A stretch of DNA of 64,000 bases from an uncultured Bifidobacteriaceae bacterium (GCA_964356125.1 CAYHHH010000008.1:4337-68336); one strand, 5' to 3'; shown: positions 5,353 through 59,821, numbered from the stretch's first letter. Notes: generated by a model from the sequence alone, not told the origin. Numbers and translations are program-made.

Positions 5353-6420
<1,068 letters not shown>

Positions 6421-9532: not shown

Positions 9533-10329
9533 GCCGTCGTCTCGTCGCCGCTGTCGCCTGCCGCAACCAGGGCGCCCGCCTGTACGGCAAGCCGCTTCAG
9601 AACCTTGACGTCGACCGTGGCGTTCGTATCATCGACAACATCATCGGCTGCTTGAAGAGCCTTCGCGATGTTGACGAGATCGTGCTCGGCATTTCAGAGG
9701 GCATCGAAAACGAAGCGTACCGCATGGTCGCCGAGCAGCACGGTCTCTCCTTCATCGTCGGCGACCAGAAAGACGTGCTGTGGCGTCTTGTGCAATGCGG
9801 TGACCAGGGTCACGCCACCGATATCTTTCGCATCACCAGCGAATCGCCCTTTCTTTACTTTGAGCCGGTCGCGCAGATGTGGCAGCGGCACCAGGCCGAG
9901 CACGCCGACGCCACTTTTCTCTGGGACATCATCGACGGCGCGGGGTGCGAAATCTACACCATGGAGACCCTGCGGGCCTCGCACGCGCGTGGGGCTGCGA
10001 AACACCGTTCCGAGCTGTGCTCGCTGTACGTGCGCGAACATCCCGAGGAGTTCAACGTCCTGCGCATCGATGCGCCCGTGGAACTGCGCCGCAAGGATGT
10101 GCGCCTGACGGTGGACTATCCGGAAGATCTGGTCGTGTGCCGTGCGGTCTACCGGGCGCTGCGCGCGCAGGCGCCGCGGCTGAGCGTGCCCGACATCGTG
10201 CGCTTTCTCGACGCGCATCCGCGGTTGCTCGAACTGCTGGCGCCGTATACCGAGGCGGGCTACGCCACCATGGACTTGTGGGGCGCCAAGCTGGCGGTGC
10301 CTCCCGGCGGTTCGCCAGAAAGGGCCTGA
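9529..10329 (+). CDS. SpsF-like cytidylyltransferase-family protein (CTP_transf_3-like)
   Basis: ATG 9529 inside ORF 9448..10329, ATGA-coupled. VAAVACRNQGARLYGKPL N-terminus and RLTVDYPEDL motif, typical of the SpsF/acylneuraminate cytidylyltransferase family. Confidence 0.8.
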   Translation: MSRRLVAAVACRNQGARLYGKPLQNLDVDRGVRIIDNIIGCLKSLRDVDEIVLGISEGIENEAYRMVAEQHGLSFIVGDQKDVLWRLVQCGDQGHATDIFRITSESPFLYFEPVAQMWQRHQAEHADATFLWDIIDGAGCEIYTMETLRASHARGAAKHRSELCSLYVREHPEEFNVLRIDAPVELRRKDVRLTVDYPEDLVVCRAVYRALRAQAPRLSVPDIVRFLDAHPRLLELLAPYTEAGYATMDLWGAKLAVPPGGSPERA

Positions 10330-10330
10330 C

Positions 10331-11674
10331 GTGATCACCAACTTTGCCAATTCGAAAGCCTACTCGGCGCGGATCCACGATCTGATCCCGGGCGGCGCGC
10401 ACACTTACTCGAAGGGCGACGACCAGTTTCCTGCCCTCGCGCCGGCCGCGATCTCGCACGGCAAGGGCGCCTATGTCTGGGACGTCGACGGCAACCGCTA
10501 TCTGGATTGCTCGATGGGCCTGACCTCGGTCAGCCTTGGCCACGCCCATCCACCGGTGCTCGACGCGGTCAAGGCCGAGCTGGATCGCGGCGTGAATTTT
10601 CAGCGGCCCTCGATGCTCGAGCTGCAGACCGCCGAGGCGTTTCTCTCGCTTGTGCCCCAGCACGACATGATCAAGTTCGCCAAGAACGGCTCGACCGTTA
10701 CCACCGCTGCCGTAAAGCTCGCGCGGGCGAAGACAGCGCGCAAGCTCGTGGCATTTCCAGGCGACCATCCTTTCTACAGCTACGATGATTGGTTCATTGG
10801 TACCACCGCATCGAGCAAGGGAGTGCCCGAAGAAATATCGTCCTTGTCGCGCACTTTCCGATCGTGCGACCTGGAGTCGCTTGCGGAGCTGTTTGAGAAA
10901 TACCCGGGGCAGATCGCCGGCGTCATCACCGAGCCAGAGAAAAGCACCTGCGGCGCAGGCTGTCGATGCGGTGGCAAGCCGGGTGAGTTTCTTCAGAAAG
11001 CGATCGAGCTCACGCATCGAGAGGGCGCGCTTTTCATCTTGGACGAAATGATCACCGGCTTCAAGACGGCGTGGCCGGGATCGATCAGCAAGTATGGCCT
11101 GCGGCCGGACATGGCGACCTGGGGTAAGGGCATAGCCAACGGGTTTGCCTTTTGCGCCCTGACGGGCACTAAGGAGGTGATGGAGTTAGGCGGTATCCGC
11201 GCGCTTGGCCAGGAAAAGGTGTTCCTGATTTCTACTACGCATGGTGCGGAAACGCACGCGATGGCTGCGGCGTTGGCTACCATTGACGAATTCAAACAGA
11301 AGAACGTGGTCGGGCACAACCACTCGATCGGTCGCCGTTTGGCTGAGGATTGCCATCGCGCCGTCGTCGCCTCTGGACTCGAGGCCTCCCTGCAAGTCGT
11401 CATGTGCGACTGGATGGTGACGTTCATCTACCGGAACGCGTCGGGGGAGTCCTCTTCGGGCCTCCGGACGCTGTTCATGCAGGAGATGATCAAGCGAGGC
11501 GTCCTGTTTCAGGGGATCTTCGTGCCTTGCCTTTCGCATTCCCTTGCGGACGTAGCCACTTTCGCCGAGGCATTTACCTCTTCACTCGATGTCTATGCCA
11601 AGGCTGTGGCGGAAGGTCATGAGAACTACTTGGTTGGGCTACCGGCCAAGCCTGTGTTCCGAAAGATTCTGTAG
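10331..11674 (+). CDS. Class-III PLP aminotransferase (glutamate-1-semialdehyde 2,1-aminomutase-like)
   Basis: IPGGAHTYSKG, FILDEMITGF and TWGKGIANG (PLP lysine). GTG start 1 nt after the upstream stop. Confidence 0.85.
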   Translation: MITNFANSKAYSARIHDLIPGGAHTYSKGDDQFPALAPAAISHGKGAYVWDVDGNRYLDCSMGLTSVSLGHAHPPVLDAVKAELDRGVNFQRPSMLELQTAEAFLSLVPQHDMIKFAKNGSTVTTAAVKLARAKTARKLVAFPGDHPFYSYDDWFIGTTASSKGVPEEISSLSRTFRSCDLESLAELFEKYPGQIAGVITEPEKSTCGAGCRCGGKPGEFLQKAIELTHREGALFILDEMITGFKTAWPGSISKYGLRPDMATWGKGIANGFAFCALTGTKEVMELGGIRALGQEKVFLISTTHGAETHAMAAALATIDEFKQKNVVGHNHSIGRRLAEDCHRAVVASGLEASLQVVMCDWMVTFIYRNASGESSSGLRTLFMQEMIKRGVLFQGIFVPCLSHSLADVATFAEAFTSSLDVYAKAVAEGHENYLVGLPAKPVFRKIL

Positions 11675-11800
11675 GGCCGGGTCACACGCGACGCGAAGCT
11701 TCGATGACAGACCGCAGGTTCGAGATCGTCGAACAGCCCGAAGGGTGGAAGTCCGCAGCACCGCAGTCTGCGCAAGGGGAGCCTCGGGAATTCTATTCCA

Positions 11801-12676
11801 ATGTCTATCAGCGCGCACGACGACGAGTTACCAAGCGTCGTAAGAGGAGCAACGAATCGTGATGCGGGGGTGGTCGTGACCGCGGATCAACGGCGGGGCA
11901 TCCGGGTTGGCCTGAAACTGTGGTCGCCTAACTTGGACCTGGCGTCACGCGTGGTTGAGATACACCGAGAGGGCTGGATCGATCTCGTCGAACTCTATGT
12001 GGTGCCTGGGACATTTGAGGCCACGATGGAAGGCTGGCGGGGACTTGGGGTGCCGTTCATGCTTCATTGCCCCCATGCAGCCCACAAATTCAATCTGGCA
12101 AAGGCCGAGTTGTTCGAGCCAAACAAATGCAAGTTCGAAGAGGTTCAGCGATTTGCCGATGCACTGCGGGCGGAAGTCATTGTGACCCACGGTGGCAACC
12201 GGGGAAGCATCGACGAAACCATTCGACAGCTGAAGCACTTCAACGATCGGCGAGTCTACATCGAGAACAAACCAAAGCTGAGCCTGACGGGCGGCCTTTG
12301 TGTCGGCCACTCTCCGGAAGAAATCGGTCAGATTTTGGGTTCGGCAGATATCGGTGGCTTCGTTCTCGATTTCGGGCACGCGACCTGCGCCGCGAATTCC
12401 GCCAAAGCAGACGCCTTTGACTACATTGCGAGGTTCGTGGCTCTCAATCCCAGGGTTTTTCACATTGGGGACGGCGATCGAACTTCCGAGAAGGACAACC
12501 ACTTCAACTTTGGTCAGGGTAGCTTCGACATTGCTCGACTCGTCTCTTACGTGCCCCCGTCGAGTGTGCTGACAATAGAAACGCCGACCGACCTGAAGCG
12601 TGGTCTCAACGACTTCGTGGAGAACGCGCGCCACCTGCGGAAGGCGATCGAAGGCTTGGATGAGTCGCGGCACTAG
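11801..12676 (+). CDS. Xylose-isomerase-like TIM-barrel protein (sugar phosphate isomerase/epimerase fold)
   Basis: Alternating beta/alpha pattern with VIVTHGG, VYIENKP, FVLDFGHA and LTIETP strands. Start uncertain (ATG 11801 or GTG 11870). Confidence 0.6.
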   Translation: MSISAHDDELPSVVRGATNRDAGVVVTADQRRGIRVGLKLWSPNLDLASRVVEIHREGWIDLVELYVVPGTFEATMEGWRGLGVPFMLHCPHAAHKFNLAKAELFEPNKCKFEEVQRFADALRAEVIVTHGGNRGSIDETIRQLKHFNDRRVYIENKPKLSLTGGLCVGHSPEEIGQILGSADIGGFVLDFGHATCAANSAKADAFDYIARFVALNPRVFHIGDGDRTSEKDNHFNFGQGSFDIARLVSYVPPSSVLTIETPTDLKRGLNDFVENARHLRKAIEGLDESRH

Positions 12677-12706
12677 CGTCGGCGAGCCCGACTAAGGAGG
12701 TTTTGC

Positions 12707-13561
12707 GTGGAGCCCAATTGTGCGGGTTCGGTTGTAGCCACGAAGGACAATCGCAACATCATTGACTGCCAAGACTGTGGGTACGCCCACGTCTATCCAA
12801 TGTACTCCGAGGCTGAGTTAGAGGAGTACTACCGGAACGTGTTCGCAGAGAGCACGCCGAGCCATCTTTGGTTTGAGAAGGTTCAAAACATTCTTCGTTG
12901 GAAGAAGCAGGGCGCGATCTTGGATGTCGGCTGCTGGGAAGGTGCACAGCTCGAACACTTCATGAAGGCCGGTTGGAACTGCACCGGTCTGGAGCTGAAC
13001 ACGAGGGCTGCTGCCATCGCTCAGGCCAAGGGGATCGAGGTCTGGCAAATGTCAATCCAGGAACTGCTCACGCGTAGTGTCGAGGCGACCTGGGACGTTA
13101 TTAACGTCGCCTACGTGCTCGAGCATATTCCTCAGCCGGTCGCCTTCTTGAGGCAGCTTGGCAGGCAGTTGAAGCCAGGCGGCATCCTGGTTCTTGAGGT
13201 GCCCAATGAGTTCAACCCCCTCCAGTTGGCATACGTGAAGAAGCAGGCGATCGACCCTTATTGGGTCTTTCTCCCAGAACATGTCAACTACTTCAGCAAA
13301 GTCAGCCTCGAGCGCTTAGTAGTCAACGCCGGCTGGAGGATCTTGCACGCTGAATCCAGTTTCCCCATGGAGATGTTCCTTCTTATGGGCGATGACTACC
13401 TGTCAGACAAGGCCGTCGGCCCCATCGCCTTCCAAAAGGCAGTGGCTTTCGAAAGTGGCCTTCGTGGTCATGACCCCGGCTTGGTTTCGCGACTTTATTC
13501 CGCGTTGTATTCCTGTGGCATTGGCCGCGGAATCACCCTCTACCTCCAGGCCGGCGAATGA
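12707..13561 (+). CDS. Class I SAM-dependent methyltransferase with N-terminal Cys-pair Zn-ribbon-like element
   Basis: CQDCGYAHVYP, ILDVGCWEG (motif I) and LKPGGILVLEVPN. GTG start preceded by AAGGAGG 6 nt upstream. Confidence 0.85.
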   Translation: MEPNCAGSVVATKDNRNIIDCQDCGYAHVYPMYSEAELEEYYRNVFAESTPSHLWFEKVQNILRWKKQGAILDVGCWEGAQLEHFMKAGWNCTGLELNTRAAAIAQAKGIEVWQMSIQELLTRSVEATWDVINVAYVLEHIPQPVAFLRQLGRQLKPGGILVLEVPNEFNPLQLAYVKKQAIDPYWVFLPEHVNYFSKVSLERLVVNAGWRILHAESSFPMEMFLLMGDDYLSDKAVGPIAFQKAVAFESGLRGHDPGLVSRLYSALYSCGIGRGITLYLQAGE

Positions 13562-13580
13562 CGGCCAGCCCTCTTCCTAG

Positions 13581-14279
13581 ATGAGATTGGGCCTCGTTGC
13601 CGATATTCACGGCAACGTCGACGCCTTGACGGCCACGCTTGCTGAGGCTCGCGCGCTGGGCGTGCAGCGATTGCTCTGTTGTGGTGACGTTGTCGGCTAT
13701 TACTACGAACCTGCACAGTGTCTTGAGCTCTTGGCCGAGTGGGAGACGGAGAGCGTCCGGGGCAATCACGAGAACATGCTGTCCCGGCTCATTAACGAAC
13801 CTGCAGTCGAGTTAAGTTTTCGGCGCCAATTCGGAAGCGGCCTCTCGGTGGCCGCAACCACCCTAACGCCCAAACAGCTGACGTACCTGGCGAGCCTGCC
13901 CGCGCATAAAGCCCTCGAAATTGAAGGCAAGACAATTCTCCTTTGCCACGGTGCGCCTTGGGACACCGACGAGTATGTGTACCCAGAGTCCCAGGCCAGC
14001 ACTTTCCTGCGCTGCGCCAGCCTGGGCGCGGACTATGTCGTGATGGGTCACACCCATTGTCAGATGGAGGAGCGAATAGGAACAACGGTTCTGATTAATC
14101 CTGGCTCGGTGGGACAGCCTCGGCGAGGGCGGCCGGCCGGGCACTGGGCGGTCCTCGATCTTGATAGCGGCGTCTGCACGCATCACACCGCGGACTATGA
14201 CCCAGGCGGGGTGATCGCGCGGGCTCGCGAGACCGACCCCCATTTTCCCTTTCTCTGGCAAGTTCTCGACCGTCAGTGA
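13581..14279 (+). CDS. Metallophosphoesterase (YfcE/MJ0936-like)
   Basis: Calcineurin-like motifs VADIHGN, CCGDVVGY, GNHE, CHGAPW and GHTH. Confidence 0.85.
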   Translation: MRLGLVADIHGNVDALTATLAEARALGVQRLLCCGDVVGYYYEPAQCLELLAEWETESVRGNHENMLSRLINEPAVELSFRRQFGSGLSVAATTLTPKQLTYLASLPAHKALEIEGKTILLCHGAPWDTDEYVYPESQASTFLRCASLGADYVVMGHTHCQMEERIGTTVLINPGSVGQPRRGRPAGHWAVLDLDSGVCTHHTADYDPGGVIARARETDPHFPFLWQVLDRQ

Positions 14280-15214
14280 AGACGATTCTCATTACCGGGA
14301 TAGGCGGTGACATTGGTCAGGGAGTGGCCAGGATCATCCGAGAAACGTTTCCGCATTGGCGACTGCTTGGCATGGATATCCACGAACGACATGGGGGTGC
14401 ACTCTTCGTTGAACAGGCCGTACGTGCGCCTGCCGTCTCCGACCCTGGGTACGATGCCTATCTCGCCGACCTGATCGCGCGCGAAGGCGTCGATCTATGC
14501 CTTCCCACTTCCGAGGCGGAGCTGATTCATTTGTCTCGAAGGTCACAGCCAGTGTTTGCCAATGCGGGGTTGATAATGGCGAATGCTCGGGCAATCGAGG
14601 TCGGCAGCGACAAGTTACTGACGGCCGAATTTCTCGGTTCGATTGGGGTTGCCCGGCCGTGGACGGTTCCGGCCGAGGCGTTCGCCGCGCAGACTCCGTT
14701 GCCTTGCGTCTTCAAGGCCCGCCGCAGCGCTGGATCAAAGGCCGTGTTCGTCTGCCAGAACAGCAGGGATGTGATGTTCTTTCGAGACCATCATCCGTCG
14801 GCCATCCTCCAGGAGCTTCTCCTCCCTGCCGACCGGGAAGTCACATGCGCGGTGTACCGGAGCCGGCATGGGCGGACGGTGGTCCTGCAGCTTCTGCGGA
14901 CCCTGGTCGGGGGATTCACCGGGTGGGCCGAGGTGATCGATGACCCTGAGGTGACCACACAGTGCACTCGTGTGGCGGAGGGGCTCGATTTGCGGGGTGC
15001 CATAAACGTGCAGTTGAGGGTGACACCGGCCGGCCCTCGGATTTTTGAGATCAATCCGCGCTTTTCCTCCACCGTGCTCATCAGGCACCGCATGGGGTTT
15101 CGCGATTTGGTGTGGGCGCTCCAAGAAAACGGTGGCGAAGAGGCAAGGTTCGTTCAGCCGCCTGCTGGAACAATCGGTGTCAGATTGCAGGATGCGGCGA
15201 TCTGTCATCGCTGA
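14276..15214 (+). CDS. ATP-grasp domain ligase
   Basis: ILITGIGGDIGQG pre-ATP-grasp Rossmann, VFKARRSAGSK and FEINPRFS (ExNPR ATP-grasp motif). GTGA overlap with the upstream gene. Confidence 0.75.
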   Translation: MKTILITGIGGDIGQGVARIIRETFPHWRLLGMDIHERHGGALFVEQAVRAPAVSDPGYDAYLADLIAREGVDLCLPTSEAELIHLSRRSQPVFANAGLIMANARAIEVGSDKLLTAEFLGSIGVARPWTVPAEAFAAQTPLPCVFKARRSAGSKAVFVCQNSRDVMFFRDHHPSAILQELLLPADREVTCAVYRSRHGRTVVLQLLRTLVGGFTGWAEVIDDPEVTTQCTRVAEGLDLRGAINVQLRVTPAGPRIFEINPRFSSTVLIRHRMGFRDLVWALQENGGEEARFVQPPAGTIGVRLQDAAICHR

Positions 15215-15228
15215 TCGAAAGAGAACTC

Positions 15229-16278
15229 ATGGCCACTAGTGCACTGTCCGAACAGCTGAAGCAATCGACTCGTCCGTTCATCATCGCGGAGATGTCGGGC
15301 AATCATAACCGCTCCTTGGAGCGCGCGTTGGCGATCGTGGACGGAGTGGCGAAGTCGGGCGCTCACGCGTTGAAGATTCAGACCTACACCCCCGACACGA
15401 TGACCATCGATATCAACGAGCGCGAGTTCCACATCAGCGATCCGAACAATCTGTGGGCCGGCCGTTCGCTCTATGAGCTCTACGGAGAGGCCTATACACC
15501 GTGGGACTGGCACGGACCCATTTTCGCGCGCGCGCGTGAGCTGGGTCTGATCGCCTTCAGCACGCCGTTCGACGACAGTGCCGTCGAGTTTCTCGAGAGT
15601 CTCGATGTGCCCTGTTACAAAATTGCATCGTTCGAGAACACCGATTTGCCTCTCGTTCGACGGACAGCCGCGACGGGCAAGCCCCTGATCATCTCCACCG
15701 GGATGGCCACCGTGGCGGAGCTCGACGAGACAGTTCGCGCGGCTCGAGAAGAGGGATGCACGGACCTCGTCTTGCTCAAATGCACCAGCACATACCCAGC
15801 GACCGCGGCGGACACCAATCTCGTCACCCTGCCACATTTGCGCGACCTTTTCGGCTGCGAGGTAGGCGTTTCAGACCACACCATGGGGGTGGGCGTTTCA
15901 GTCGCCAGCATCGCTCTAGGCGCTACTGTTGTCGAAAAGCACTTCACACTCAGCCGCGCCGAAGGCGGTGTGGACAGTGCGTTCTCGATGGAGCCTCATG
16001 AGATGTCCCAGCTTGTTGTCGAGACCGAGCGCGCCTGGCAGGCCATGGGACGGGTGACCTATGGACCAACAGCAGCGGAGAGGAATTCGCTGCAGTACCG
16101 ACGCTCCTTGTATGTGGTGCAGGACCTCGTGGCTGGCGAAGTACTTACGCACGTGAATGTCCGTGCGATTCGGCCAGGTCTCGGCCTGCCGACCAAGCAC
16201 ATTTCGCAGATCCTTGGGCGAACTGTGAGATGCGACATCAAGAGAGGAACCGCATTGACTTGGGAGTTGATCGGATGA
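15229..16278 (+). CDS. pseI: Pseudaminic acid synthase, PseI
   Basis: ATG 15229 inside ORF 15112..16278. IIAEMSGNHNRSLERALAIVD...GAHALKIQTYTPDTMT, GVSDHT, EKHFTL and a C-terminal SAF domain. Confidence 0.9.
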   Translation: MATSALSEQLKQSTRPFIIAEMSGNHNRSLERALAIVDGVAKSGAHALKIQTYTPDTMTIDINEREFHISDPNNLWAGRSLYELYGEAYTPWDWHGPIFARARELGLIAFSTPFDDSAVEFLESLDVPCYKIASFENTDLPLVRRTAATGKPLIISTGMATVAELDETVRAAREEGCTDLVLLKCTSTYPATAADTNLVTLPHLRDLFGCEVGVSDHTMGVGVSVASIALGATVVEKHFTLSRAEGGVDSAFSMEPHEMSQLVVETERAWQAMGRVTYGPTAAERNSLQYRRSLYVVQDLVAGEVLTHVNVRAIRPGLGLPTKHISQILGRTVRCDIKRGTALTWELIG

Positions 16279-16889
16279 GCTCGACCGCGGGTGCCTCGTG
16301 CCGATCCTCGGCTGACACGAGTCCGGAAGACGCCCCTGTGCTCACCGGCAAGCACTACCAGCTGGTGCCCTTCAACGAGTCCCTGGCGACGGACCGCTAT
16401 TTGGGCTGGTTGACCGATCCCGAGGTTACGCGTTTCATGGGAGTCCGGCACCAGCCCCAGACGCGCGAGACGGCCTTAGCATTCGTCCGGTCTTTTCAAG
16501 GCGCGACCAATAAATTCATGTGGGCGATCTTTCCCATTGGCGGAGCAGATCCGGTTGGTACTTCGACCTTGTACAACATCAACCGGAACCACGGCAGCGT
16601 GGAACTGGGCCTGATGGTTGGAGACAAGGCGCATTGGGGTCGCGGCGCGTCGGAGGAGACCATTCGCCTGTTAATCGCCTTCGCCTTTGGGCCCCTCGGA
16701 CTGCGCCGGATGACCGGTGGTTCCTATGCTTGCAACCACGGCATGAACTTCACCTACAAGAAACTCGGTTTCACTCGCGAGGGTCGATTGCGCTCGGCCT
16801 TGCAACTCTCACCGGGCGAATTCGTGGACGGATACCTTTGGGGGCTGCTGGCTAGCGATCCGGTAGTGCCACGAGCACCGGGATCATGA
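16275..16889 (+). CDS. GNAT-family N-acetyltransferase (PseH candidate)
   Basis: ATG 16275 ATGA-coupled to pseI. WGRGASEETIRLLIAFAF acetyl-CoA loop and GFTREGRLR C-terminal GNAT motif. Confidence 0.8.
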   Translation: MSSTAGASCRSSADTSPEDAPVLTGKHYQLVPFNESLATDRYLGWLTDPEVTRFMGVRHQPQTRETALAFVRSFQGATNKFMWAIFPIGGADPVGTSTLYNINRNHGSVELGLMVGDKAHWGRGASEETIRLLIAFAFGPLGLRRMTGGSYACNHGMNFTYKKLGFTREGRLRSALQLSPGEFVDGYLWGLLASDPVVPRAPGS

Positions 16890-18685
16890 TCGAGGCGGAC
16901 TCAACCCTCGCTGACATCGTTGCCGCTGCTCGCCCGGATCCAGCCGCTTACGCGGAGGCTGCAAGGCGCGTGCAATCAGAGGCCGGGGCACTGCAGCCCC
17001 TTCGAGTGGCGGTGATGGCGACCTCGACCGTCGAGCCGATTCGGCCCTATCTCGTTGTCGAAGGAGCGGTTCGCGGCCTGATCATCCAGCCGCGGTTTCT
17101 TCCCTTCAACCAGCTCGAGCTGCAGGTCCTGGATCCGAGCTCAGAGCTCAGGCGTGAATCGGTAGATGCGATCGTGATTGCATGCGGACTGAACGATTTT
17201 GCGCCGCGGTTGACATCGGGTTTTGTCGGCCTGTCATCGTTGGCAATCGACGATGAAGTGCGGGCGGTTGGCGACCGCCTAGGCCAGCTGCTGGACGGGA
17301 TACGCGGCTTCACGGATGCCGCCCTCGTCCTCTTCAACTTTGGTCCCGAGGCATATCTCGCGGCGGGACTGGCCGACCCGATGCTCGAGCCATCCCAAGC
17401 CTCGACGCTACAGCGTGTGAATGATGTGGCGGCAGGCTTGGGCCGCACACGCGCCGGCGTTAGCGTGCTGGACTACGCCCGGCTCGTCGTCGAGCACGGC
17501 CTGCGCCATTGGGTGGACCCGCGGCTGGTGTTCCGGGGACGCATTCCGTTCGGCGTGGTCGGGCAGCAGCAGACGGGCCGGGCACTCGCGCGCCACCTGC
17601 GCGCAACCCAGCGGCCGCCGTGCAAGTGCCTGGTGCTCGACCTCGACAACACCCTGTGGGGAGGCGTGCTTGGCGAGGACGGCCCGCAGGGGATTGCGCT
17701 GGGCGAAGATCACCCGGGCAACGTTTTCAAATCGTTTCAGCGTGCCGTCCTCGCGCTCAAGGACCGCGGTGTCCTGCTCGCTCTGGCGAGCAAGAACGAC
17801 GAGGCCGAGGCCAGGGCCGTGATTAACGGCCACCCTGACTGCCTGCTGCGCACGGCCGATTTCTCGGCGTTCCAGGTGAACTGGAATGACAAGGCGAGCA
17901 GCCTGGCGGCGATCGCCGCTCAGTTGTCGATCGGTATCGACGCGCTGGCCTTCTTCGATGACTCGCCCCAGGAGCGCGAGTGGGTCCGCAGCCGCTTGCC
18001 GGCGGTCACGGTCATCGACGTGCCCGCGTCGCCGCTCGGTTACGTCCATGCATTGATGGAATCGGGAGCATTCGATCACCTCTCGCTGACTGCCGAGGAT
18101 CGCGTCCGCGCGGAGCTGTATCGCCAGGAAGATGCCCGCGCCGCGCTGCAATCGCAACACGCGACGATCGCCGACTTTCTCGCCGACCTGGGGCTGAAGG
18201 TGACCATCGGAGGAATCGGGCCGTCGACCCAGGCGCGCGCGGCCCAGCTGATCGCCAAGACCAATCAGTTCAACGTCACCGTTCGCCGTCACTCCGAGGC
18301 GGAGCTGCAGGCGCTGCTGGCCGCCGGGGCCGAGGGGCTCTGGATGCGTGTCAGCGATCGCTACGGCGATGCGGGGCTCGTCGGTCTCGCCATCGCGGTG
18401 GCCACGGACGACGGAGTGTGGGAGCTCGATACACTCTTGCTCAGTTGCCGCGTCATCGGACGCCAGGTCGAGACCGCGTTGCTCGCGCAGTTGGCGGCGC
18501 GCGTGCGCGCGCGCGGTGGTCGCATGCTGGACGCGAAGCTGGTGCGAACGCCGAAGAACGCACCCGCGCACGACGTGTTCGACCGGCACGGCTTCGACGC
18601 CGTTGGCGACGGGCACTGGCGGCTTCCGCTCGATCGGACGATCGAGCGGCCAGAGTTTCTCGAGGTCACCGTTGACGAGTCCTGA
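16886..18685 (+). CDS. FkbH-like HAD-IIIC phosphatase/acyl-loading enzyme
   Basis: HAD motif I VLDLDNTLWGG, LALASKN and FFDDSPQE. C-terminal GNAT-like domain with LLSCRVIGR (candidate acyl-S-enzyme Cys). Confidence 0.85.
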   Translation: MIEADSTLADIVAAARPDPAAYAEAARRVQSEAGALQPLRVAVMATSTVEPIRPYLVVEGAVRGLIIQPRFLPFNQLELQVLDPSSELRRESVDAIVIACGLNDFAPRLTSGFVGLSSLAIDDEVRAVGDRLGQLLDGIRGFTDAALVLFNFGPEAYLAAGLADPMLEPSQASTLQRVNDVAAGLGRTRAGVSVLDYARLVVEHGLRHWVDPRLVFRGRIPFGVVGQQQTGRALARHLRATQRPPCKCLVLDLDNTLWGGVLGEDGPQGIALGEDHPGNVFKSFQRAVLALKDRGVLLALASKNDEAEARAVINGHPDCLLRTADFSAFQVNWNDKASSLAAIAAQLSIGIDALAFFDDSPQEREWVRSRLPAVTVIDVPASPLGYVHALMESGAFDHLSLTAEDRVRAELYRQEDARAALQSQHATIADFLADLGLKVTIGGIGPSTQARAAQLIAKTNQFNVTVRRHSEAELQALLAAGAEGLWMRVSDRYGDAGLVGLAIAVATDDGVWELDTLLLSCRVIGRQVETALLAQLAARVRARGGRMLDAKLVRTPKNAPAHDVFDRHGFDAVGDGHWRLPLDRTIERPEFLEVTVDES

Positions 18686-18697
18686 CGCGGCCACGGG

Positions 18698-19870
18698 GTG
18701 TTTGCCGGCATGACACCCGTAGTTGGACAGGTGTTCCATTACCGCCTCCGCATCGACGAGGCTCTCGTGGAGCAGTTTGCCGCGATGTCAGGCGATCGCA
18801 ACCCGATTCACGTCGATCGCGCCGCCGCGCGATCGTATGGCTTCGATCGCCCGGTTGCGCATGGCGCCATTCTGTTGTCGGCGGTATCGCGCATGATCGG
18901 CCTCGACATTCCCGGCCACGGTGCGGTGTGGATGAGCCAATCGGTGGAGTGGCTGTCGCCCACGTTCGTGGGCGATGAGATTGAGTTGTCGGTGACGGTG
19001 TCGCAGGTCTCTGCGGGTACCGGAATGCTCGGCCTCGACGTCGTCGCAAAACGGGCCGACGGCGCGGTCGTGATGACGGGGCATGGGAAGGTCAAGATGG
19101 GACAAAAGCTGGACGGACATACACCGACGCCCGACGGGCGTCGCGCGGCGCTCGTGACGGGCGCGTCCGGCGCTATTGGCGGCGCCATCGCGTTACGCCT
19201 GGCGGCCTCCGGCATTGCGGTCGCGGTGCATGCCAATCAATCCGCCGCCCGGGCTGAAGCGTTGCTCGGCGAGATTCGCGCCGCCGGCGGCAGCGGTTGC
19301 GTCGTGCTGGGTGACCTGGCGTCAGGCGAAGAAGGCGCGGCACAAGTCGCGGGCGCGGCGCTTGTGGAATTGGGGCGGCTTGACATTGTCGTGCATGCCG
19401 CCACGCCGCCCCTCAACACCGTGAGCGTCGACGAGCTTTCGATGGCGGCGTTCGAGCCGTACTTGCGCTCGTACCTCGGTGGTGCACTGGGCCTCCTGAA
19501 GGTCGTTCGCCCGGGCATGGCGCAACGGCGCTCAGGCCGCTTGATCTTCATCGGCACCGCCGCTGCCTCGGCACCGCCCCCGGGTTGGGCGCCGTACGTG
19601 GCCGCCAAGGAAGCGTTGTGGGGGCTGGTCAAGTGTCTTGCGCGCGAGCTGGGGCCCGACGGCATCACCACCAATATGGTGTCTCCCGGCCTGACGATCA
19701 GCGAGCTGACCGCCAACGTTGCGAGCCGGGCTAAGGAAGTTGAGGCGCGCCGCAATCCGCTCCGGCGCCTGGCCACTGCCGACGACACGGCGGCGGCGGT
19801 CAGTTTTCTCGCGTCACTCGAGGGAGGTTACGTCAATGGAGTGAACCTCCCGGTGACGGGGGGACTGTGA
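18698..19870 (+). CDS. Fusion protein: MaoC-like (R)-hydratase hot-dog domain + SDR oxidoreductase
   Basis: N-terminal FAAMSGDRNPIHVD (MaoC hydratase motif). C-terminal ALVTGASGAIGGAIA and YVAAKEAL (YxxxK). Confidence 0.8.
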   Translation: MFAGMTPVVGQVFHYRLRIDEALVEQFAAMSGDRNPIHVDRAAARSYGFDRPVAHGAILLSAVSRMIGLDIPGHGAVWMSQSVEWLSPTFVGDEIELSVTVSQVSAGTGMLGLDVVAKRADGAVVMTGHGKVKMGQKLDGHTPTPDGRRAALVTGASGAIGGAIALRLAASGIAVAVHANQSAARAEALLGEIRAAGGSGCVVLGDLASGEEGAAQVAGAALVELGRLDIVVHAATPPLNTVSVDELSMAAFEPYLRSYLGGALGLLKVVRPGMAQRRSGRLIFIGTAAASAPPPGWAPYVAAKEALWGLVKCLARELGPDGITTNMVSPGLTISELTANVASRAKEVEARRNPLRRLATADDTAAAVSFLASLEGGYVNGVNLPVTGGL

Positions 19871-19901: not shown

Positions 19902-20432
19902 ATGGTGATCTGGTTCGCGGGACTGTCGGGCGCTGGCAAGTCGACCCTGTGCGAGGCGATCTACGCGCGTCTCAAGCCGCGGATGCCGGAGCTCGTGTTG
20001 CTCGACGGGGACGCCATTCGCGCCGGCGTGAGTGCGGACCTCGGTTACACCGAGGCCGACCGCACCGTGCAGGTGTCGCGCGTGCAACGGCTCGCGCGGC
20101 TGCTGTCTGAGCAGGGACTCGTGGTGATGGTGGCCGTCGTGTATGCGAGCCCCGCGCTCCTGGAGTGGAACCGATCGCAGATCCCCGGCTACTTCGAGGT
20201 GCTGTTGGACGCCCCGCTGGCGCTCGTGACCGGCCGCGATCCCAAGGGTCTGTATGCGCGCGCGGGGCGCGGTGAGACGCGCGACGTGGTTGGCGTGGAC
20301 ATTCCCTGGCACCGCCCGGCCGCGTCTGATCTGGTGCTCGACGCCGGTGCCGGTGCCGGTGCGACCGTTGAGGAACTGGCCTCGCGCGTGGTCAACGCGG
20401 TTCCGGTACTCGCTGCGCGGTGGACGTCGTGA
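19902..20432 (+). CDS. cysC: Adenylylsulfate (APS) kinase
   Basis: WFAGLSGAGKSTL P-loop, LDGDAIR, DLGYTEADR and RDPKGLYARA. Confidence 0.9.
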   Translation: MVIWFAGLSGAGKSTLCEAIYARLKPRMPELVLLDGDAIRAGVSADLGYTEADRTVQVSRVQRLARLLSEQGLVVMVAVVYASPALLEWNRSQIPGYFEVLLDAPLALVTGRDPKGLYARAGRGETRDVVGVDIPWHRPAASDLVLDAGAGAGATVEELASRVVNAVPVLAARWTS

Positions 20433-21511
20433 TGGAGTTGGTGCTCAATAAGCGCCAGTATCTCGAGCTCGAGAAGATCGCGCTCGGCGCCTTCGCGCCG
20501 TTGACCGGCTTCATGGACGAGGCCGACTTTCACTCGGTGGTCGAGCGCATGCACTTGGCGTCGGGCGAAGTCTTCGCCCTTCCGGTCTTCCTCGATGTTA
20601 ACGAGAGCGTCGCGAACGCGGTGGCGCCGGGCGACACGCTGCGCTTGCTGTGGGAAAGGACCGTTGTCGGCGAGGTAGACGCGACAAGCGTGTTTACCTG
20701 TGACAAAGACGCGGCGGCGTCGCAGGTCTACGGCACGACCGATCTCACGCATGCCGGTGTCGCGCACTTCTTCAAGTTGGGCACGCACTTCATCGGCGGA
20801 CCAGTGCGGCTGACTGCCCGCGCCCAGTTTGATTTTTCCGCTCACGAGCTGACGCCGGCGGCCGCTCGCCAACGCTTCGCCGATTTAGGGTGGACGACGA
20901 TCGCCGGTTTCCAGACCCGCAACGTCCCGCATCGCGCTCACGAATACCTGCAGCGGGTTGCGCTCGAGCACGTCGACGGTCTCTTCATCCAGCCGCTGGT
21001 GGGATACAAGAAGCGCGGCGACTACCAGCCGTTGGCGATTCTCGCGGGTTACCAGGCTCTCCTGCAGACCTGCTTTCCGCCGTCGCGCGTGATTCTGGGC
21101 GTGCTGTCGACGTCCATGCGCTACGCCGGGCCTCGCGAGGCGGTGTTTCACGCCATCATCCGCCGCAACTATGGCTGTACGCACTTTGTCGTCGGCCGTG
21201 ACCATGCCGGCGTCGGCGGCTTTTACGGCAAGTACGAAGCGCACGAGATGACCCGCCGTTTCGATGGCGAGTTGGGCATTCAGATCCTGCGCCTGTCGGG
21301 GCCGTTCTACTGCCGCCGTTGCGGACAGATTGCCACTGAGAAGACCTGCCGTCATGTGACCGACGATCCCGGCGCGACTCACGAGATCAGCGGTAGCGAC
21401 ATGCGGCGCCTGCTGTCCGGCCTCGACGAGCCGGCGCCGGAACTGATGCGGCCCGAGGTAGTTGCCAGCCTCGCCGGCCAGCCGCTCTTTGTGGACGAGG
21501 ACGAAGCATGA
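20432..21511 (+). CDS. sat: Sulfate adenylyltransferase (ATP sulfurylase, Sat type)
   Basis: GFQTRNVPHRAHEYL and VVGRDHAGVG signature motifs. ATG 20432 overlaps the cysC stop; the alternative GTG is at 20420. Confidence 0.9.
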   Translation: MELVLNKRQYLELEKIALGAFAPLTGFMDEADFHSVVERMHLASGEVFALPVFLDVNESVANAVAPGDTLRLLWERTVVGEVDATSVFTCDKDAAASQVYGTTDLTHAGVAHFFKLGTHFIGGPVRLTARAQFDFSAHELTPAAARQRFADLGWTTIAGFQTRNVPHRAHEYLQRVALEHVDGLFIQPLVGYKKRGDYQPLAILAGYQALLQTCFPPSRVILGVLSTSMRYAGPREAVFHAIIRRNYGCTHFVVGRDHAGVGGFYGKYEAHEMTRRFDGELGIQILRLSGPFYCRRCGQIATEKTCRHVTDDPGATHEISGSDMRRLLSGLDEPAPELMRPEVVASLAGQPLFVDEDEA

Positions 21512-22923
21512 GCCTGCGGAAGATCGTCGCCACCATCGGCCCCGCGACCGCCAATGCCGAGAGCCTGCGCCAGCTGTTCGCCGCCGGGATGGGCGTGGCG
21601 CGGCTGAATGGCTCGCACGCGACGCTGGAGTGGCACGCCGCGACGATTGCGCTGCTGCGCGCCACCGTGCCGGACGTGCCGGTCCTGCTCGACATCCCCG
21701 GCCGCAAAATTCGCACCGGACGGCTCGTCCATGAACCGAGCTTCGCCGCCGGCGATCAAATCACGCTCACCACCGACACCGGGCATGACGGCACGCTCAA
21801 AGTCCCGGTGAACTACGCCGGCCTCCACGAAGACTTGCGGGCCGGCCACACCATCCTGGCCGACGATGGCCAGCTGCGGTTCACGGTGGTGCGCATTGAA
21901 GGGCGCGACATCGTGTGCCGGGCCGAGGGATCCGGCACCTTGAAGAGCGCGAAGGGCATCAACGTCCCGATGGTCACGCTGCGGACCGCGATGGTCACCG
22001 AGCGCGACCGCCAGATGCTGGCCTTCGCCCGCGAGCACGGTGTCGACTTTGTCGGCATCAGCTTCGTCGAAAGCGCGGCGCACATCCAGGCGATTCGGGA
22101 TCTGATTGGCGGCTCGCAGCCGGCGGTGGTGGCGAAGGTCGAGAACCAGGGCGCGATGGATCACCTGGACGAGGTGGTCGCGGCTGCGGATGCCATCATG
22201 ATCGACCGCGGCGACCTGTCGGTGGAAACCTCGCTCGAAAGCGTGGCGCTCTCGCAGAAGCGCATTCTGACCGCGGCCCGCCGCGTCGCCTGCCCGGTGA
22301 TTGTCGCCACCGAGATGCTGCACTCGATGATCACGAGCTCGAACCCCACCAAGGCCGAAGTGAGCGACATCACCAACGCCGTGCTCGACGGGGCATCGGC
22401 GCTGATGCTGTCGGGCGAGACCGCAGTTGGTGCGTTCCCGATCGAAGCTGTCGCCACCATGCGGCGGATCGTGGATCACGCGGACCGGTTCATGTCCGGA
22501 GAAGCTGGTCCGGTCGAAGGGAACAATGCCATACCGGCTGCGGTTAGCGCAGCGGTCGGCGTGGTGTGCGCCTCGGTCGCCGTGACCAAGATCGTGGCGG
22601 TGACCATTGCCGGTTTCGCTGCGCGGGCGTTGGCGAGCCAGTTGCCGAGGCAGCCGATTCTGGCCGTGACCAGCGACGCCGCCAAGGCGCGGGCGTTCAA
22701 CCTGCTGCCGGGGGTGACCGGTGTGCACGTCGACGTGCCGTTCTCACGACGCACGACGGATCACATTCCGCGGTGCCTCGAAGCGCTGTGGCGCCACGGG
22801 CTGCTGGTCGATCACGATCTGGTGGTGGTTGTCGCCGTAGGTTATCCGCGATCCGGTAATCGAATGAACATGCTGGAGGTCCACCGGATCGACGACCTCC
22901 GGCAGACGATGGGGTGGTTGTAG
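21508..22923 (+). CDS. pyk: Pyruvate kinase paralog (full length, divergent motifs)
   Basis: KIVATIGPA, AKVENQGAM, MIDRGDLSVE, VATEMLHSM, PTKAEVSD and LSGETA, plus a C-terminal alpha/beta domain. Deviations from canonical: LNGSHAT for NFSHG, and LDIPGRKIRTG for LDTKGPEIRTG. Confidence 0.85.
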   Translation: MSLRKIVATIGPATANAESLRQLFAAGMGVARLNGSHATLEWHAATIALLRATVPDVPVLLDIPGRKIRTGRLVHEPSFAAGDQITLTTDTGHDGTLKVPVNYAGLHEDLRAGHTILADDGQLRFTVVRIEGRDIVCRAEGSGTLKSAKGINVPMVTLRTAMVTERDRQMLAFAREHGVDFVGISFVESAAHIQAIRDLIGGSQPAVVAKVENQGAMDHLDEVVAAADAIMIDRGDLSVETSLESVALSQKRILTAARRVACPVIVATEMLHSMITSSNPTKAEVSDITNAVLDGASALMLSGETAVGAFPIEAVATMRRIVDHADRFMSGEAGPVEGNNAIPAAVSAAVGVVCASVAVTKIVAVTIAGFAARALASQLPRQPILAVTSDAAKARAFNLLPGVTGVHVDVPFSRRTTDHIPRCLEALWRHGLLVDHDLVVVVAVGYPRSGNRMNMLEVHRIDDLRQTMGWL

Positions 22924-22925
22924 GC

Positions 22926-23696
22926 ATGGGGCGTTCGAGTCACGCCGGGCAGGTTGGCGAGACGGATCGCGAGACGATCTTCGATCTCGCTGGCGAAGTC
23001 GAGTCTCTGGTGGAAACGACGGTGCCGGCGCCGCGGTTGCCGCGTATGGCTCCGAGCCGCTTGGTCACGCGGTTCGCGCTCAATGGCAACCGGATCGATC
23101 ACAGCCAATACGACGAGCAAGGCCGGTTGGTGTCCCGTTCCGAGTATCGATACGACGAGCAGGGACGGCGAATCGGCCCGCGATTTTACAAAGGCGATCC
23201 CGCAGCCCTGGATCACGAACTGCGCTTCGAGTACGACGAGACCGGCCGCCGCCGCGCACGCCAGGAGCAACGAAATGCCCTGGGCGAACTGATGTTCGTC
23301 CTCCACTTTGGCTACGACGCCACCGGTCGCCGCACCCAGGTTAGGTGGGTGCAGCCAGACGGAGGAGTGATCCGCACCTACCAGATAGGGTACGACGACT
23401 CGGGAAATCGGTCGCGCATTTCGAGCATCGATGGTGCCGGCCGGACGGAGTGGCGCTCACGTACATTCTTCGACAGCCGGGGCCGGTTGCGCCTGCTACT
23501 CAGGCACGAGATGCCGATTGGTCTCAGCGTCGAGTGGCGCTGGTACGGCCGCGACGACACGCGCGGTAACTGGACGCGCAGTGTGCGCTGGCGTGCCTGG
23601 TTGGTCCGCAAGGTGATACCTGTCGTCACGCGTGAACGCATCGAACGCGAAATCGCCTATGCCCCTCACGTCGGGCCAGGCTTGGGGACACCCTGA
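22926..23696 (+). CDS. Small YD/RHS-repeat protein
   Basis: Six YD-type repeats (YDEQGRLV, YRYDEQGRRI, FEYDETGRR, FGYDATGRR, IGYDDSGNR, FFDSRGRL). No obvious signal peptide. ATG 22926 sits right after the pyk stop. Confidence 0.6.
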   Translation: MGRSSHAGQVGETDRETIFDLAGEVESLVETTVPAPRLPRMAPSRLVTRFALNGNRIDHSQYDEQGRLVSRSEYRYDEQGRRIGPRFYKGDPAALDHELRFEYDETGRRRARQEQRNALGELMFVLHFGYDATGRRTQVRWVQPDGGVIRTYQIGYDDSGNRSRISSIDGAGRTEWRSRTFFDSRGRLRLLLRHEMPIGLSVEWRWYGRDDTRGNWTRSVRWRAWLVRKVIPVVTRERIEREIAYAPHVGPGLGTP

Positions 23697-24664
23697 TGCC
23701 TGTTGTCTCGCACGCTTTGAACGTAACCCCGACGGTGGTTCTCATCGACGGGCTCACGCGATCAGGCAAGTCGCTCCTGGGACCGGTCCTCTCCAGCTTT
23801 GACCGGGTCGAGATCGAGCGGCTTGAGCCGGACGTGGAGTGGATGGGTGACCTGGCCCACTTAGGCCGGGTCGAAAGAGATGCTGCTGTGACCTTCTTGC
23901 GCCTTACGGTCGATCGCTTGTTTTACGAAGGCTTGATCGGTCGCAATACCAACTTCCGATTTGGCGATCATTCGAGTGTGTGGCGCGCGCCGTCGCGTTG
24001 GCGATACTTCCGGCGCCTGTTGTTGGACGAGCGCCTGCCGCTGCTGGACCGAGTGGCCAATGAAAGGCCGATTTTCCAGAACATGGTGCATCACCAGTTG
24101 ATGAACCTACCGCTCTACGCCGAGGCGTTTGGCGACCGTCTTCGAATGATTGAGATGGTTCGCGACCCCGTTGATCTGATTGATTCCTGGATGCGCAAGG
24201 ACAAAGGCGCCTTGATCGGAAATGATCCGCTGATCAGCATGGTATTCATCGAACGTGGCGGCAGGGAGCTGCCGTGGTACGCCGCCGGCTGGGAAGATGA
24301 GTACCTGGCCGCAAGCCCGCTCGACCGTGTGATCCGTCTCATCGCGACCAAATGGCGGCTGTCGATCGACGCTTGGCGGGCGGCCGACGAGACCCTTCGT
24401 TCGCGGCTGTTGATGATACCGTTCGAGGACTTCGTTCAGAGAACGGGCGACTACATCGACTGTCTGGGATCTTTCGTCGGCACCAGACCCACCCGGCGCA
24501 CCGCAGCCATGCTGCGATCCCAGCGATGTCCCCGCCTCTACGAGCGCTCCAAACGCGATGAGCGGTTGCTCCGCTTTCGGCGAGATGCCGGGCCCACTGC
24601 CCGGGCCGCGCTGGATGCGATGGTTGGCGAGCACGGCCAGGTAGCCACAGAAATTGCGATCTGA
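23696..24664 (+). CDS. Putative PAPS-dependent sulfotransferase
   Basis: 5'-PSB-like loop GLTRSGKS near the N-terminus and 3'-PB-like MVRDPVDLIDSW. Genomic context with sat/cysC. Confidence 0.7.
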   Translation: MPVVSHALNVTPTVVLIDGLTRSGKSLLGPVLSSFDRVEIERLEPDVEWMGDLAHLGRVERDAAVTFLRLTVDRLFYEGLIGRNTNFRFGDHSSVWRAPSRWRYFRRLLLDERLPLLDRVANERPIFQNMVHHQLMNLPLYAEAFGDRLRMIEMVRDPVDLIDSWMRKDKGALIGNDPLISMVFIERGGRELPWYAAGWEDEYLAASPLDRVIRLIATKWRLSIDAWRAADETLRSRLLMIPFEDFVQRTGDYIDCLGSFVGTRPTRRTAAMLRSQRCPRLYERSKRDERLLRFRRDAGPTARAALDAMVGEHGQVATEIAI

Positions 24665-31950: not shown

Positions 31951-31951
31951 G

Positions 31952-32783: not shown

Positions 32784-33035
32784 ATGAATCAAGAATTCGA
32801 ACCCCGCGTAATACGCGTTCTCTCGGCCGTGGTCAACCTGCCTGTCGAGCAGTTGTCCGGTGATTCGGGACCCGACACGGTTCCGGGTTGGGACTCGGCG
32901 TCGCATCTGAGTTTGGTGCTTGCCCTCGAGGCCGAGTTCGGCACGGCCTTCACCGATGAAGAGGTTACCGACATGCTGTCAGTCAACCTGATTTGTACGA
33001 TCCTCGGCGAGCGCCAGAACGCGTGGCGTTTGTGA
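32784..33035 (+). CDS. Acyl carrier protein
   Basis: 83-aa acidic four-helix-type sequence with phosphopantetheine-site motif GWDSASHLSLV. ATG 32784 inside ORF 32748..33035. Confidence 0.75.
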   Translation: MNQEFEPRVIRVLSAVVNLPVEQLSGDSGPDTVPGWDSASHLSLVLALEAEFGTAFTDEEVTDMLSVNLICTILGERQNAWRL

Positions 33036-39156: not shown

Positions 39157-39173
39157 GAGAAGGGACGAAGCCA

Positions 39174-57106: not shown

Positions 57107-57166
57107 ACTATGTTGGACGCTGGGATCGCTCGCGTCCCCGTCAATGGCCGGCGACTTCGCGCCCAA

Positions 57167-57883: not shown

Positions 57884-57895
57884 GCACAGCCCAGC

Positions 57896-58696: not shown

Positions 58697-58705
58697 CTTG
58701 CCCCA

Positions 58706-59818: not shown

Positions 59819-59821
59819 CCG

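Follow-up and report, generated by a model that had tools for sequence, protein, structure and literature searches.

In a 64,000-nucleotide stretch of DNA from an uncultured Bifidobacteriaceae bacterium (GCA_964356125.1 CAYHHH010000008.1:4337-68336; the whole stretch is called the window in the following), genes for pseudaminic acid (Pse) biosynthesis are accompanied by genes for an FkbH-type enzyme, a fusion of a MaoC-type dehydratase with a short-chain dehydrogenase/reductase (SDR), and an acyl carrier protein (ACP). Judging from their sequences and arrangement, four genes of this locus on balance probably form a discrete, split version of the lactyl-S-ACP starter module of trans-acyltransferase polyketide synthases (trans-AT PKSs), with the lactyl group being passed to a Pse precursor. 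Family membership, intact catalytic motifs, gene linkage, fusions, and co-occurrence were directly seen for this proposed module, which centers on the following genes:

16275-16889, plus strand: GNAT protein (Acetyltransf_3; PF13302, 68.2 bits) of 204 aa, the sole PseH-like gene of the window.
16886-18685, plus strand: predicted FkbH-type glyceryl-S-ACP synthase/phosphatase of 599 aa, composed of an N-terminal domain, a HAD-IIIC domain (D252, D254), and a C-terminal domain with Cys521.
18710-19870, plus strand: MaoC hot-dog dehydratase fused to an SDR (PF01575, PF00106; 386-aa gene call, longest open reading frame from 18698), a proposed dehydratase-ketoreductase (DH-KR).
32784-33035, plus strand: ACP with its serine in GWDS (GWDSAS), proposed from the partner-ACP profile described below to be the FkbH partner.

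The window (ca. 65% G+C) is a near-continuous, co-directional array of glycan-biosynthesis genes on the plus strand. We scanned ca. 60 of its open reading frames (ORFs) against Pfam and used the curated cutoffs of NCBIfam for named families; start positions and lengths of several genes are gene calls on the metagenomic source contig (ENA ERZ4201063).

By profile match, motifs, and architecture, the product of 16886-18685 is a full FkbH-type enzyme, with a similarity far beyond chance. It matches TIGR01686 (FkbH) across profile positions 3-320 of 323 with 277.5 bits (cutoff 146.65; E = 1.3e-82) and TIGR01681 (HAD-IIIC) with 64.8 bits (cutoff 35.75); with Pfam alone, FkbH went unrecognised and only residues 470-570 showed a match, a weak one to GNAT. 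The original prediction, made from the sequence of the window, had pointed to the HAD-IIIC motif DLDNTLWG and the cysteine of LLSCRVIGR in this 599-aa protein and had named the TIGR01686 profile as a check. Both motifs are indeed present (VLDLDNTLWGG at residues 249-259 with DLDNT within 250-256, and LLSCRVIGR at 518-526), the profile match is full-length, and an alignment with 19 homologs shows D252, D254, S302, K303, K336, D358, D359, and C521 to be invariant. Residues 22-400 match PDB 3slr, the solved structure of the uncharacterised Bacteroides fragilis protein BF1531. The three-domain architecture is that of known glyceryl-S-ACP synthases, since the FkbH protein of a tetronate cassette on plasmid pOB3b3 matches residues 40-598. 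Homologs are abundant (>1,200 at E<1e-20), nearly all of them ca. 600 aa long, and are either unnamed or annotated as "FkbH-like" or "HAD-IIIC family phosphatase". Among the matches listed from species-representative genomes, the nearest relatives (Verrucomicrobia, Myxococcales) are ca. 48-50% identical to the window copy, and metagenome proteins reach up to 57%.

The ACP at 32784-33035 was the sole match when a profile of 71 FkbH-adjacent ACPs was run against the window in six frames (85 bits, E = 1.1e-25; nothing else at E<10), and a search of the window with E. coli AcpP returned the same ORF as its only match. It carries the W-D-S phosphopantetheine site that is at least 90% conserved among partner ACPs. 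It is located downstream of the FkbH gene, with 14.1 kb between the FkbH stop and the ACP start, on the same strand and within one unbroken plus-strand gene array, in agreement with the single ACP with GWDSAS at 14 kb distance that had been noted before.

For comparison we used the best 80 of at least 595 confirmed FkbH loci (600 stretches from species-representative genomes were examined) and queried their ORFs with all proteins encoded in the window. These 80 loci come from bacteria (Verrucomicrobiota, Myxococcota, Acidobacteriota, Planctomycetota, Proteobacteria, Gemmatimonadota, relatives of Cyanobacteria, and the Patescibacteria group, i.e., the candidate phyla radiation) as well as from archaea (Asgard archaea, Thermoproteota, and Nitrososphaeria). 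In 67 of them, the FkbH gene has a homolog of the window ACP at most 400 bp away (64 downstream, 2 upstream, 1 fused), and in 71 there is one within 3.3 kb; four of the nine loci lacking such a homolog terminate at the FkbH gene. In an Aureliella sp. (L014, 1903-5157), FkbH, ACP, and a GNAT-like domain of ca. 370 aa are parts of one 1084-aa protein, and in a member of the Verrucomicrobiia (L010, 11787-13148) the ACP is fused to the same GNAT-like domain; in both cases, a stand-alone MaoC gene comes after the fusion gene. Furthermore, the similarities of FkbH and ACP to their window copies covary across loci (Spearman 0.52, p = 4e-6). As judged by these comparisons, FkbH and an ACP of the partner type are a conserved two-gene unit from which the window departs only by its 14-kb separation, and the distant ACP is very probably the partner of the FkbH enzyme. 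The window locus looks like one cassette, or two merged ones, that has since been split, because the SDR and the hexapeptide transferase flanking the ACP are usual cassette partners elsewhere.

It could be argued from the same separation, which is atypical (0/80 loci), that FkbH and ACP are leftovers without any relation to each other, the former acting only as a phosphatase or being inactive after the loss of its adjacent ACP, and the latter serving its neighbors with some other acyl group; the ACP does have usual partners of its own, an SDR and a hexapeptide transferase, right next to it. However, the HAD motifs and Cys521 of the FkbH protein are all intact, the ACP belongs to the FkbH-partner family at 85 bits, no second ACP loader (FkbH, AMP-ligase, or FabD-type acyltransferase domain) was found in the window, and both genes are part of one co-directional array. 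We regard this explanation as very improbable.

The MaoC-SDR gene begins 24 bp after the FkbH stop. Its longest ORF (18698-19870) contains a MaoC_dehydratas domain at residues 14-107 (66.9 bits) followed by adh_short at 150-343 (117.5 bits), which bears out the earlier description of a hot-dog hydratase fused to an SDR after the FkbH gene. The catalytic motifs of the fusion are intact, i.e., SGDRNPIHVD of the hydratase-2 type (DxNPxH), the Rossmann motif TGASGAIG (TGxxxxxG), and YVAAK (YxxxK). A MaoC domain adjoins FkbH/ACP in 14 of the 80 loci, ten times as a MaoC-SDR fusion, and a NeuB/PseI-family gene is present in 8 of these 14 loci compared to none of the 66 without MaoC (Fisher 1e-7, not corrected for phylogeny). 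One of the loci is from Myxococcales (L002; FkbH 49% identical), with pseI followed further on by GNAT, FkbH, ACP, and MaoC-SDR genes, which by gene content and order is the arrangement of the window with the ACP still in place. Three other loci (L013, L024, and L060) share the order NeuB, MaoC-SDR, FkbH, ACP, GNAT, and polysaccharide deacetylase. On plasmids, tblastn searches with the MaoC-SDR fusion gave single-domain matches only and none over its full length.

The acyl donor made by these proteins is likely lactyl-S-ACP rather than glyceryl- or hydroxymalonyl-ACP. A lactoyl group appears likelier than a glyceroyl group because the MaoC-SDR protein matches in architecture the DH-KR pair that precedes FkbH-ACP in the loading module of FR901464 biosynthesis, a module reported to produce lactyl-S-ACP from glyceryl-S-ACP. 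The original prediction had thus been right about the presence of the fusion but had treated it as an unexplained neighbor, whereas it appears to be the counterpart of this DH-KR pair. A hydroxymalonyl-type product is disfavored because the window has no FkbI/FkbK-type domains: neither an FkbI-like acyl-CoA dehydrogenase nor an FkbK-like 3-hydroxyacyl-CoA dehydrogenase was among the ca. 60 ORFs scanned, and we have rejected a hydroxymalonyl or methoxymalonyl product as unlikely. Of the earlier proposal of an ACP-bound C3 donor that acylates a sugar, sugar acylation fits, given that the cassette recurs beside genes for GNAT, hexapeptide, and MBOAT proteins, deacetylases, and NeuB/Pse enzymes; the hydroxymalonyl option becomes unlikely and glyceroyl becomes less likely than lactoyl.

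A glyceroyl donor nevertheless has to be considered seriously. FkbH and ACP could make glyceryl-S-ACP from which the glyceroyl group is transferred unchanged, possibly to be O-methylated later, with the MaoC-SDR protein serving another purpose. FkbH and ACP accompany acyltransferases without MaoC in 66 of the 80 loci, and transferring glyceroyl is probably what the cassette does by default. Pseudaminic acids with N-glyceroyl and di-O-methylglyceroyl groups have been described (PMC5378307, PMC3068675), and eight methyltransferase genes dependent on S-adenosylmethionine (SAM) are present in the window. Yet the close spacing of only 24 bp between the FkbH and MaoC-SDR genes speaks against separate purposes, as does the recurrence of MaoC-SDR, FkbH, and ACP together in different phyla and, joined in a single polypeptide, in PKS loaders reported to make lactyl-S-ACP. 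In addition, a glyceryl thioester is a 3-hydroxyacyl thioester and belongs to the substrate class of MaoC dehydratases. For the window, we consider transfer of an unchanged glyceroyl group unlikely.

Alternatively, MaoC-SDR and ACP might be a unit resembling fatty acid synthesis or beta-oxidation that gives (R)-3-hydroxybutanoyl or another chain-extended hydroxyacyl group, for which a housekeeping or unlinked ketosynthase would be needed. Among the unusual N-acyl groups of nonulosonic acids, (R)-3-hydroxybutanoyl is the most common one. The SDR domain resembles FabG, MaoC proteins are the family of (R)-specific enoyl hydratases, and 5 of the 80 loci have ketosynthase III (KSIII) genes next to the cassette, three of them with MaoC-SDR. 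On the other hand, ketosynthases, thiolases, and AMP-ligases (or any AMP-binding domain) were absent from the ca. 60 window ORFs scanned, just as had been predicted for ketosynthase and acyl-AMP ligase, and most MaoC-SDR loci lack them as well. Such a pathway would also leave FkbH, the most conserved partner of the ACP, without a role, and we hold it to be improbable.

If the locus does encode a lactyl-S-ACP module, the FkbH enzyme (16886-18685) would take in 1,3-bisphosphoglycerate, remove the 3-phosphate by means of its HAD aspartates, hold D-glycerate as a thioester on Cys521, and pass it to the holo-ACP (32784-33035) to form glyceryl-S-ACP. The MaoC domain of the fusion protein (18710-19870) would dehydrate this 2,3-dihydroxyacyl thioester to an enol-pyruvoyl and hence a pyruvoyl-S-ACP, and the SDR domain would reduce the 2-keto group to yield lactyl-S-ACP. 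Either the GNAT protein (16275-16889) or the hexapeptide transferase (33051-33644) would then move the C3 hydroxyacyl group to a sugar. The most likely acceptor would be the 4-amino group of the PseC product, resulting in a Pse5Ac7Lac-type, i.e., N7-lactoyl, pseudaminic acid, while O-acylation by the hexapeptide enzyme, which resembles O-acetyltransferases, may be an alternative to this last step. In this scheme, we infer which substrate is used, in what order the steps proceed, that the product is lactoyl, and which acceptor receives it.

The sugar pathway that would provide the acceptor is represented by three genes, the products of which all score above the curated cutoffs for the respective equivalogs:

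5365-6420, plus strand: pseB, inverting UDP-GlcNAc 4,6-dehydratase for the first pathway step (TIGR03589, 517.1 bits vs. cutoff 407.75).
6448-7644, plus strand: pseC, aminotransferase forming UDP-4-amino-4,6-dideoxy-beta-L-AltNAc (TIGR03588, 451.9 bits vs. 423.5).
15229-16278, plus strand: pseI, pseudaminic acid synthase (349-aa gene call; TIGR03586, 489.5 bits vs. 340.25).

Candidates for the cytidylyltransferase PseF are an ORF with a weak CTP_transf_3 match at 9448-10329 and a KdsB-like gene at 36330-37127; a PseG-type domain was not seen among the scanned window ORFs.

Two genes of the window are candidates for the transferase. The GNAT gene overlaps pseI and the FkbH gene by ATGA, one at each end, and thus intervenes between the two genes that had earlier been described as directly adjacent. 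Its product scores 27.6 bits against TIGR03585 (PseH; cutoff 93.1) and has a homolog directly upstream of FkbH in L002 (3e-58), making it a candidate for either an ordinary acetyl-CoA-dependent PseH or a user of acyl-ACP. The second candidate is found next to the ACP, which is surrounded by SDRs, a hexapeptide acyltransferase, and a membrane acyltransferase as originally predicted:

31634-32731, plus strand: SDR just upstream of the ACP, a possible accessory reductase (PF13561, 171.4 bits; domain from ca. residue 112, so that the true start is later).
33051-33644, plus strand: hexapeptide-repeat acyltransferase (PF00132, PF14602), starting 16 bp past the ACP; the other candidate for using acyl-ACP.
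33641-34441: CysQ-like gene (resembling phosphatases of 3'-phosphoadenosine 5'-phosphate), following the hexapeptide transferase.
34441-35538: membrane Acyl_transf_3 protein (Pfam).
35480-36286: SDR downstream of the ACP (Pfam).

The best NCBIfam matches of the hexapeptide transferase are O-acetyltransferases (WbbJ with 76.8 bits, below cutoff). Hexapeptide transferases cluster beside FkbH-ACP in 22 of the 80 loci, and stand-alone SDRs of the 31634-32731 type lie beside FkbH/ACP in L039, L051, L054, and L058. Other recurrent companions of the cassette are a GNAT-like protein of ca. 377 aa without significant Pfam match (cluster c4; 24 loci, mostly Acidobacteriota), a different GNAT-like protein, about equally long, that comes after the ACP in MaoC loci (6 loci), and a polysaccharide deacetylase that follows in 15 of the 80 loci. 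Where genes for a deacetylase and a GNAT protein come after the ACP, N5 might be re-acylated, which would agree with the pseudaminic acid structure of Psychrobacter marincola discussed below.

Several points weigh against a lactyl-S-ACP module that acylates Pse in this organism. None of the 80 comparison loci shows a 14-kb gap between FkbH and ACP, and since the ACP sits that far off, the pairing of the two proteins in the window organism is an assumption. With 120 bits to PDB 3sj7 (FabG, 3-oxoacyl-ACP reductase) and 50 bits to the FR901464 loader KR, the SDR domain of the fusion is much closer to the former, and the likeness of MaoC-SDR to characterised DH-KR proteins is, as far as sequences can tell, one of superfamily, architecture, and linkage rather than orthology. 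FabH-like KSIII genes in 3 of the 10 MaoC-SDR loci (L041, L051, and L054) make a chain-extended product possible in some systems. Regarding transfer, close homologs of the GNAT protein lie beside FkbH in only one of the 80 loci (L002), and the hexapeptide transferase is nearer to O-acetyltransferases than to the N-acetyltransferases PglD/NeuD, which makes the acceptor and linkage proposed above tentative. Finally, the co-occurrence statistics over the 80 loci ignore the kinship of the genomes.

We also rejected a Dlt-like route for the window in which an MBOAT protein would transfer the acyl group, given that the MBOAT of a Rhodobacteraceae plasmid (pSC52_6) has no homolog in the window, where there is an Acyl_transf_3 protein instead. 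This plasmid (L083, 7059-11912) and Sinorhizobium meliloti pSymB (L082, 6651-11686) each encode an MBOAT, a protein of 360-410 aa, an ACP, and an FkbH-like gene in a Dlt-like layout adjoining rkpR/KPS export genes or sulfation genes, which suggests that a capsule is O-acylated outside the cytoplasm with an acyl group stemming from FkbH. The idea that the pSymB homolog belongs to the rkp-3 region for pseudaminic acid was discarded since no Pse genes occur within 14 kb and the MBOAT, ACP, and FkbH-like genes lie beside rkpR and KPS export genes. Likewise, homologs on the Ralstonia megaplasmid do not represent the EPS I locus (with a sugar carrying 3-hydroxybutanoyl) but are located inside a PKS/fatty-acyl cluster.

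The remainder of the window encodes further modules of glycan biosynthesis. Between pseC and pseI (7527-15214), a second module comprises an aldo-keto reductase, a NeuB-like synthase (142.6 bits, below the NeuB cutoff), a weakly cytidylyltransferase-like ORF, an aminotransferase of the PRK06209 type (540 bits vs. cutoff 486), a xylose-isomerase-like TIM barrel protein, a methyltransferase, a YfcE-type phosphoesterase, and an ATP-grasp enzyme. Another set at 36330-41610 (KdsB-like cytidylyltransferase with 266 bits vs. cutoff 255, GFO/IDH/MocA oxidoreductase, two methyltransferases, HpcH/HpaI aldolase, and HAD hydrolase) may be a third pathway of the ulosonic acid type. The genes at 57110-61869 (transaldolase-family gene, methyltransferase, DegT aminotransferase, and alpha and beta subunits of a thiamine-dependent E1 enzyme) resemble sets that add two-carbon branches to sugars.

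After MaoC-SDR, the interval 19902-24664 carries genes for adenosine 5'-phosphosulfate (APS) kinase, ATP sulfurylase, pyruvate kinase, and a weakly sulfotransferase-like protein, with the CysQ-like gene further on. Genes for 3'-phosphoadenosine 5'-phosphosulfate synthesis, CysQ, or pyruvate kinase are also found near FkbH-ACP in several unrelated loci, i.e., L007, L015, L026, L028, L033, L035, L053, L059, L073, and L083 (pSC52_6). A 260-aa ORF at 22914-23696 with an RHS-repeat match (27.7 bits) is odd inside this sulfation block and may be spurious or encode an unrecognised enzyme. The eight SAM-dependent methyltransferase genes start at 12707, 38002, 40603, 44178, 51348, 52205 (FkbM type, 52205-53014), 55029, and 57896, confirming the earlier impression of many methyltransferases at this locus. 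The glycan of this locus probably carries many methyl groups, and the C3 hydroxyacyl group may be O-methylated as well.

How phages, antibodies, and hosts recognize pseudaminic and legionaminic acids is shaped by the N-acyl groups of these sugars. It is plausible, if somewhat short of probable, that FkbH and ACP with or without MaoC or MaoC-SDR are a widespread glycan-tailoring system of bacteria and archaea that uses 1,3-bisphosphoglycerate to make glyceroyl, pyruvoyl, or lactoyl groups on a carrier for transfer to nonulosonic acids and polysaccharides by GNAT, hexapeptide, or MBOAT enzymes. If true, the genes so far missing for pseudaminic acids with N-glyceroyl and N-lactoyl groups would be found, and the lactyl starter module of trans-AT PKSs and the sugar-decoration cassette would be versions of one unit. 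The window locus and its 80 relatives offer a concrete candidate pathway for glyceroyl and lactoyl variants using enzymes with chemistry established in polyketide biosynthesis. The cassette is common (at least 595 confirmed loci) across many bacterial phyla and several archaeal lineages, though annotated only as "HAD-IIIC family phosphatase", and once its function is proven, many glycan loci could be annotated better and enzymes would be at hand for making modified nonulosonic acids. The enzyme families and, from polyketide loaders, their chemistry are known, but discrete proteins of these families working in loci for nonulosonic acids and polysaccharides appear to be undescribed.

Among known systems, the fkbGHIJK genes for methoxymalonyl-ACP in FK520/FK506 biosynthesis share with the window an FkbH domain (TIGR01686) and a dedicated ACP. 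However, the window protein has an extra N-terminal domain (resembling PDB 3slr), and the MaoC-SDR pair takes the place of FkbI/FkbK. The tetronate cassette on plasmid pOB3b3 of Methylosinus trichosporium OB3b (FabH-like/FkbH/ACP) is similar in having a three-domain FkbH protein of ca. 600 aa (32.6% identity over residues 40-598) and a small adjacent ACP, but tetronate cassettes include a FabH-like condensing enzyme and feed a polyketide, neither of which applies to the window.

An FkbH-domain gene within a Pse glycosylation locus, likened to the window by description only, is cj1302 of Campylobacter jejuni. Nearby are the ACP genes cj1299 and cj1304, and the locus also has a fabH2 gene, of which the window has none. 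cj1302 has been noted as an FkbH-domain gene of the flagellin glycosylation locus (PMC7099621), and a C. jejuni strain with this gene makes di-O-methylglyceroyl-Pse (PMC3068675), in agreement with the O-methylated N-glyceroyl groups on Campylobacter Pse to which the original prediction had referred. No function of cj1302 was shown in the literature searched. The remark that no FkbH/ACP route to glycan decorations had been described also agrees with the searchable literature (subscription-only papers lie outside it), which held no functional account of FkbH with polysaccharides or pseudaminic acid and the mention of cj1302 as an FkbH-domain gene as its only relevant statement.

The kinds of C3 hydroxyacyl sugars expected from the window module are known as structures only. 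Pse5(R-lactoyl)7Ac was described in 2020 from the capsule of Psychrobacter marincola KMM 277T as the first Pse decorated with lactic acid, in a paper that discusses no genes (PMC7281560); its lactoyl group is on N5, whereas a GNAT of the PseH type would acylate N7. Tannerella forsythia produces the N-glyceroyl pseudaminic acid Pse5Am7Gra (PMC5378307), and the gene for its N7-glyceroyl group "remains elusive" (PMC6120980).

The loading module of the FR901464/spliceostatin PKS (Burkholderia sp. FERM BP-3421) has the same four parts as the window, listed here in loader order, i.e., MaoC-type hot-dog dehydratase, SDR, FkbH, and ACP. They make up the N-terminal part of the first protein of this PKS, which contains one of the plasmid matches to the window FkbH (MaoC_dehydratas 10-98, adh_short 280-467, FkbH ca. 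705-1035, PP-binding 1156-1217, then a ketosynthase). Its FkbH domain is 34% identical to the window protein (E = 1e-52), with DNTLW and LLSCRV[IL]GR in common (LLSCRVLGR in the loader), and its N-terminus is colinear with MaoC-SDR in pairwise alignments (E = 6e-7 for MaoC and 1e-10 for SDR). The loader of a trans-AT PKS from Streptomyces anulatus is arranged in the same way and is likewise colinear with the window MaoC-SDR. Also the bryostatin loader in BryA is organized as DH-KR-FkbH-ACP. According to a review, bifunctional DH-KR proteins turn glyceryl-S-ACP into lactyl-S-ACP in FR901464 and lankacidin biosynthesis (PMC4765723), with He et al. 2014 (Chem. 2014, 53:11315, as reported via PMC4765723) given as its source for this conversion. 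An FkbH loading module is also listed elsewhere as yielding D-lactate-ACP from 1,3-bisphosphoglycerate (PMC7901079). PKS loaders differ from the window fusion by a spacer of ca. 150 aa between MaoC and SDR. Unlike in FR901464 biosynthesis, the parts in the window are three separate proteins in a pseudaminic acid/glycan context, with the ACP 14 kb away and no ketosynthase following, and the lactyl group would serve as acyl donor for a sugar rather than as polyketide starter.

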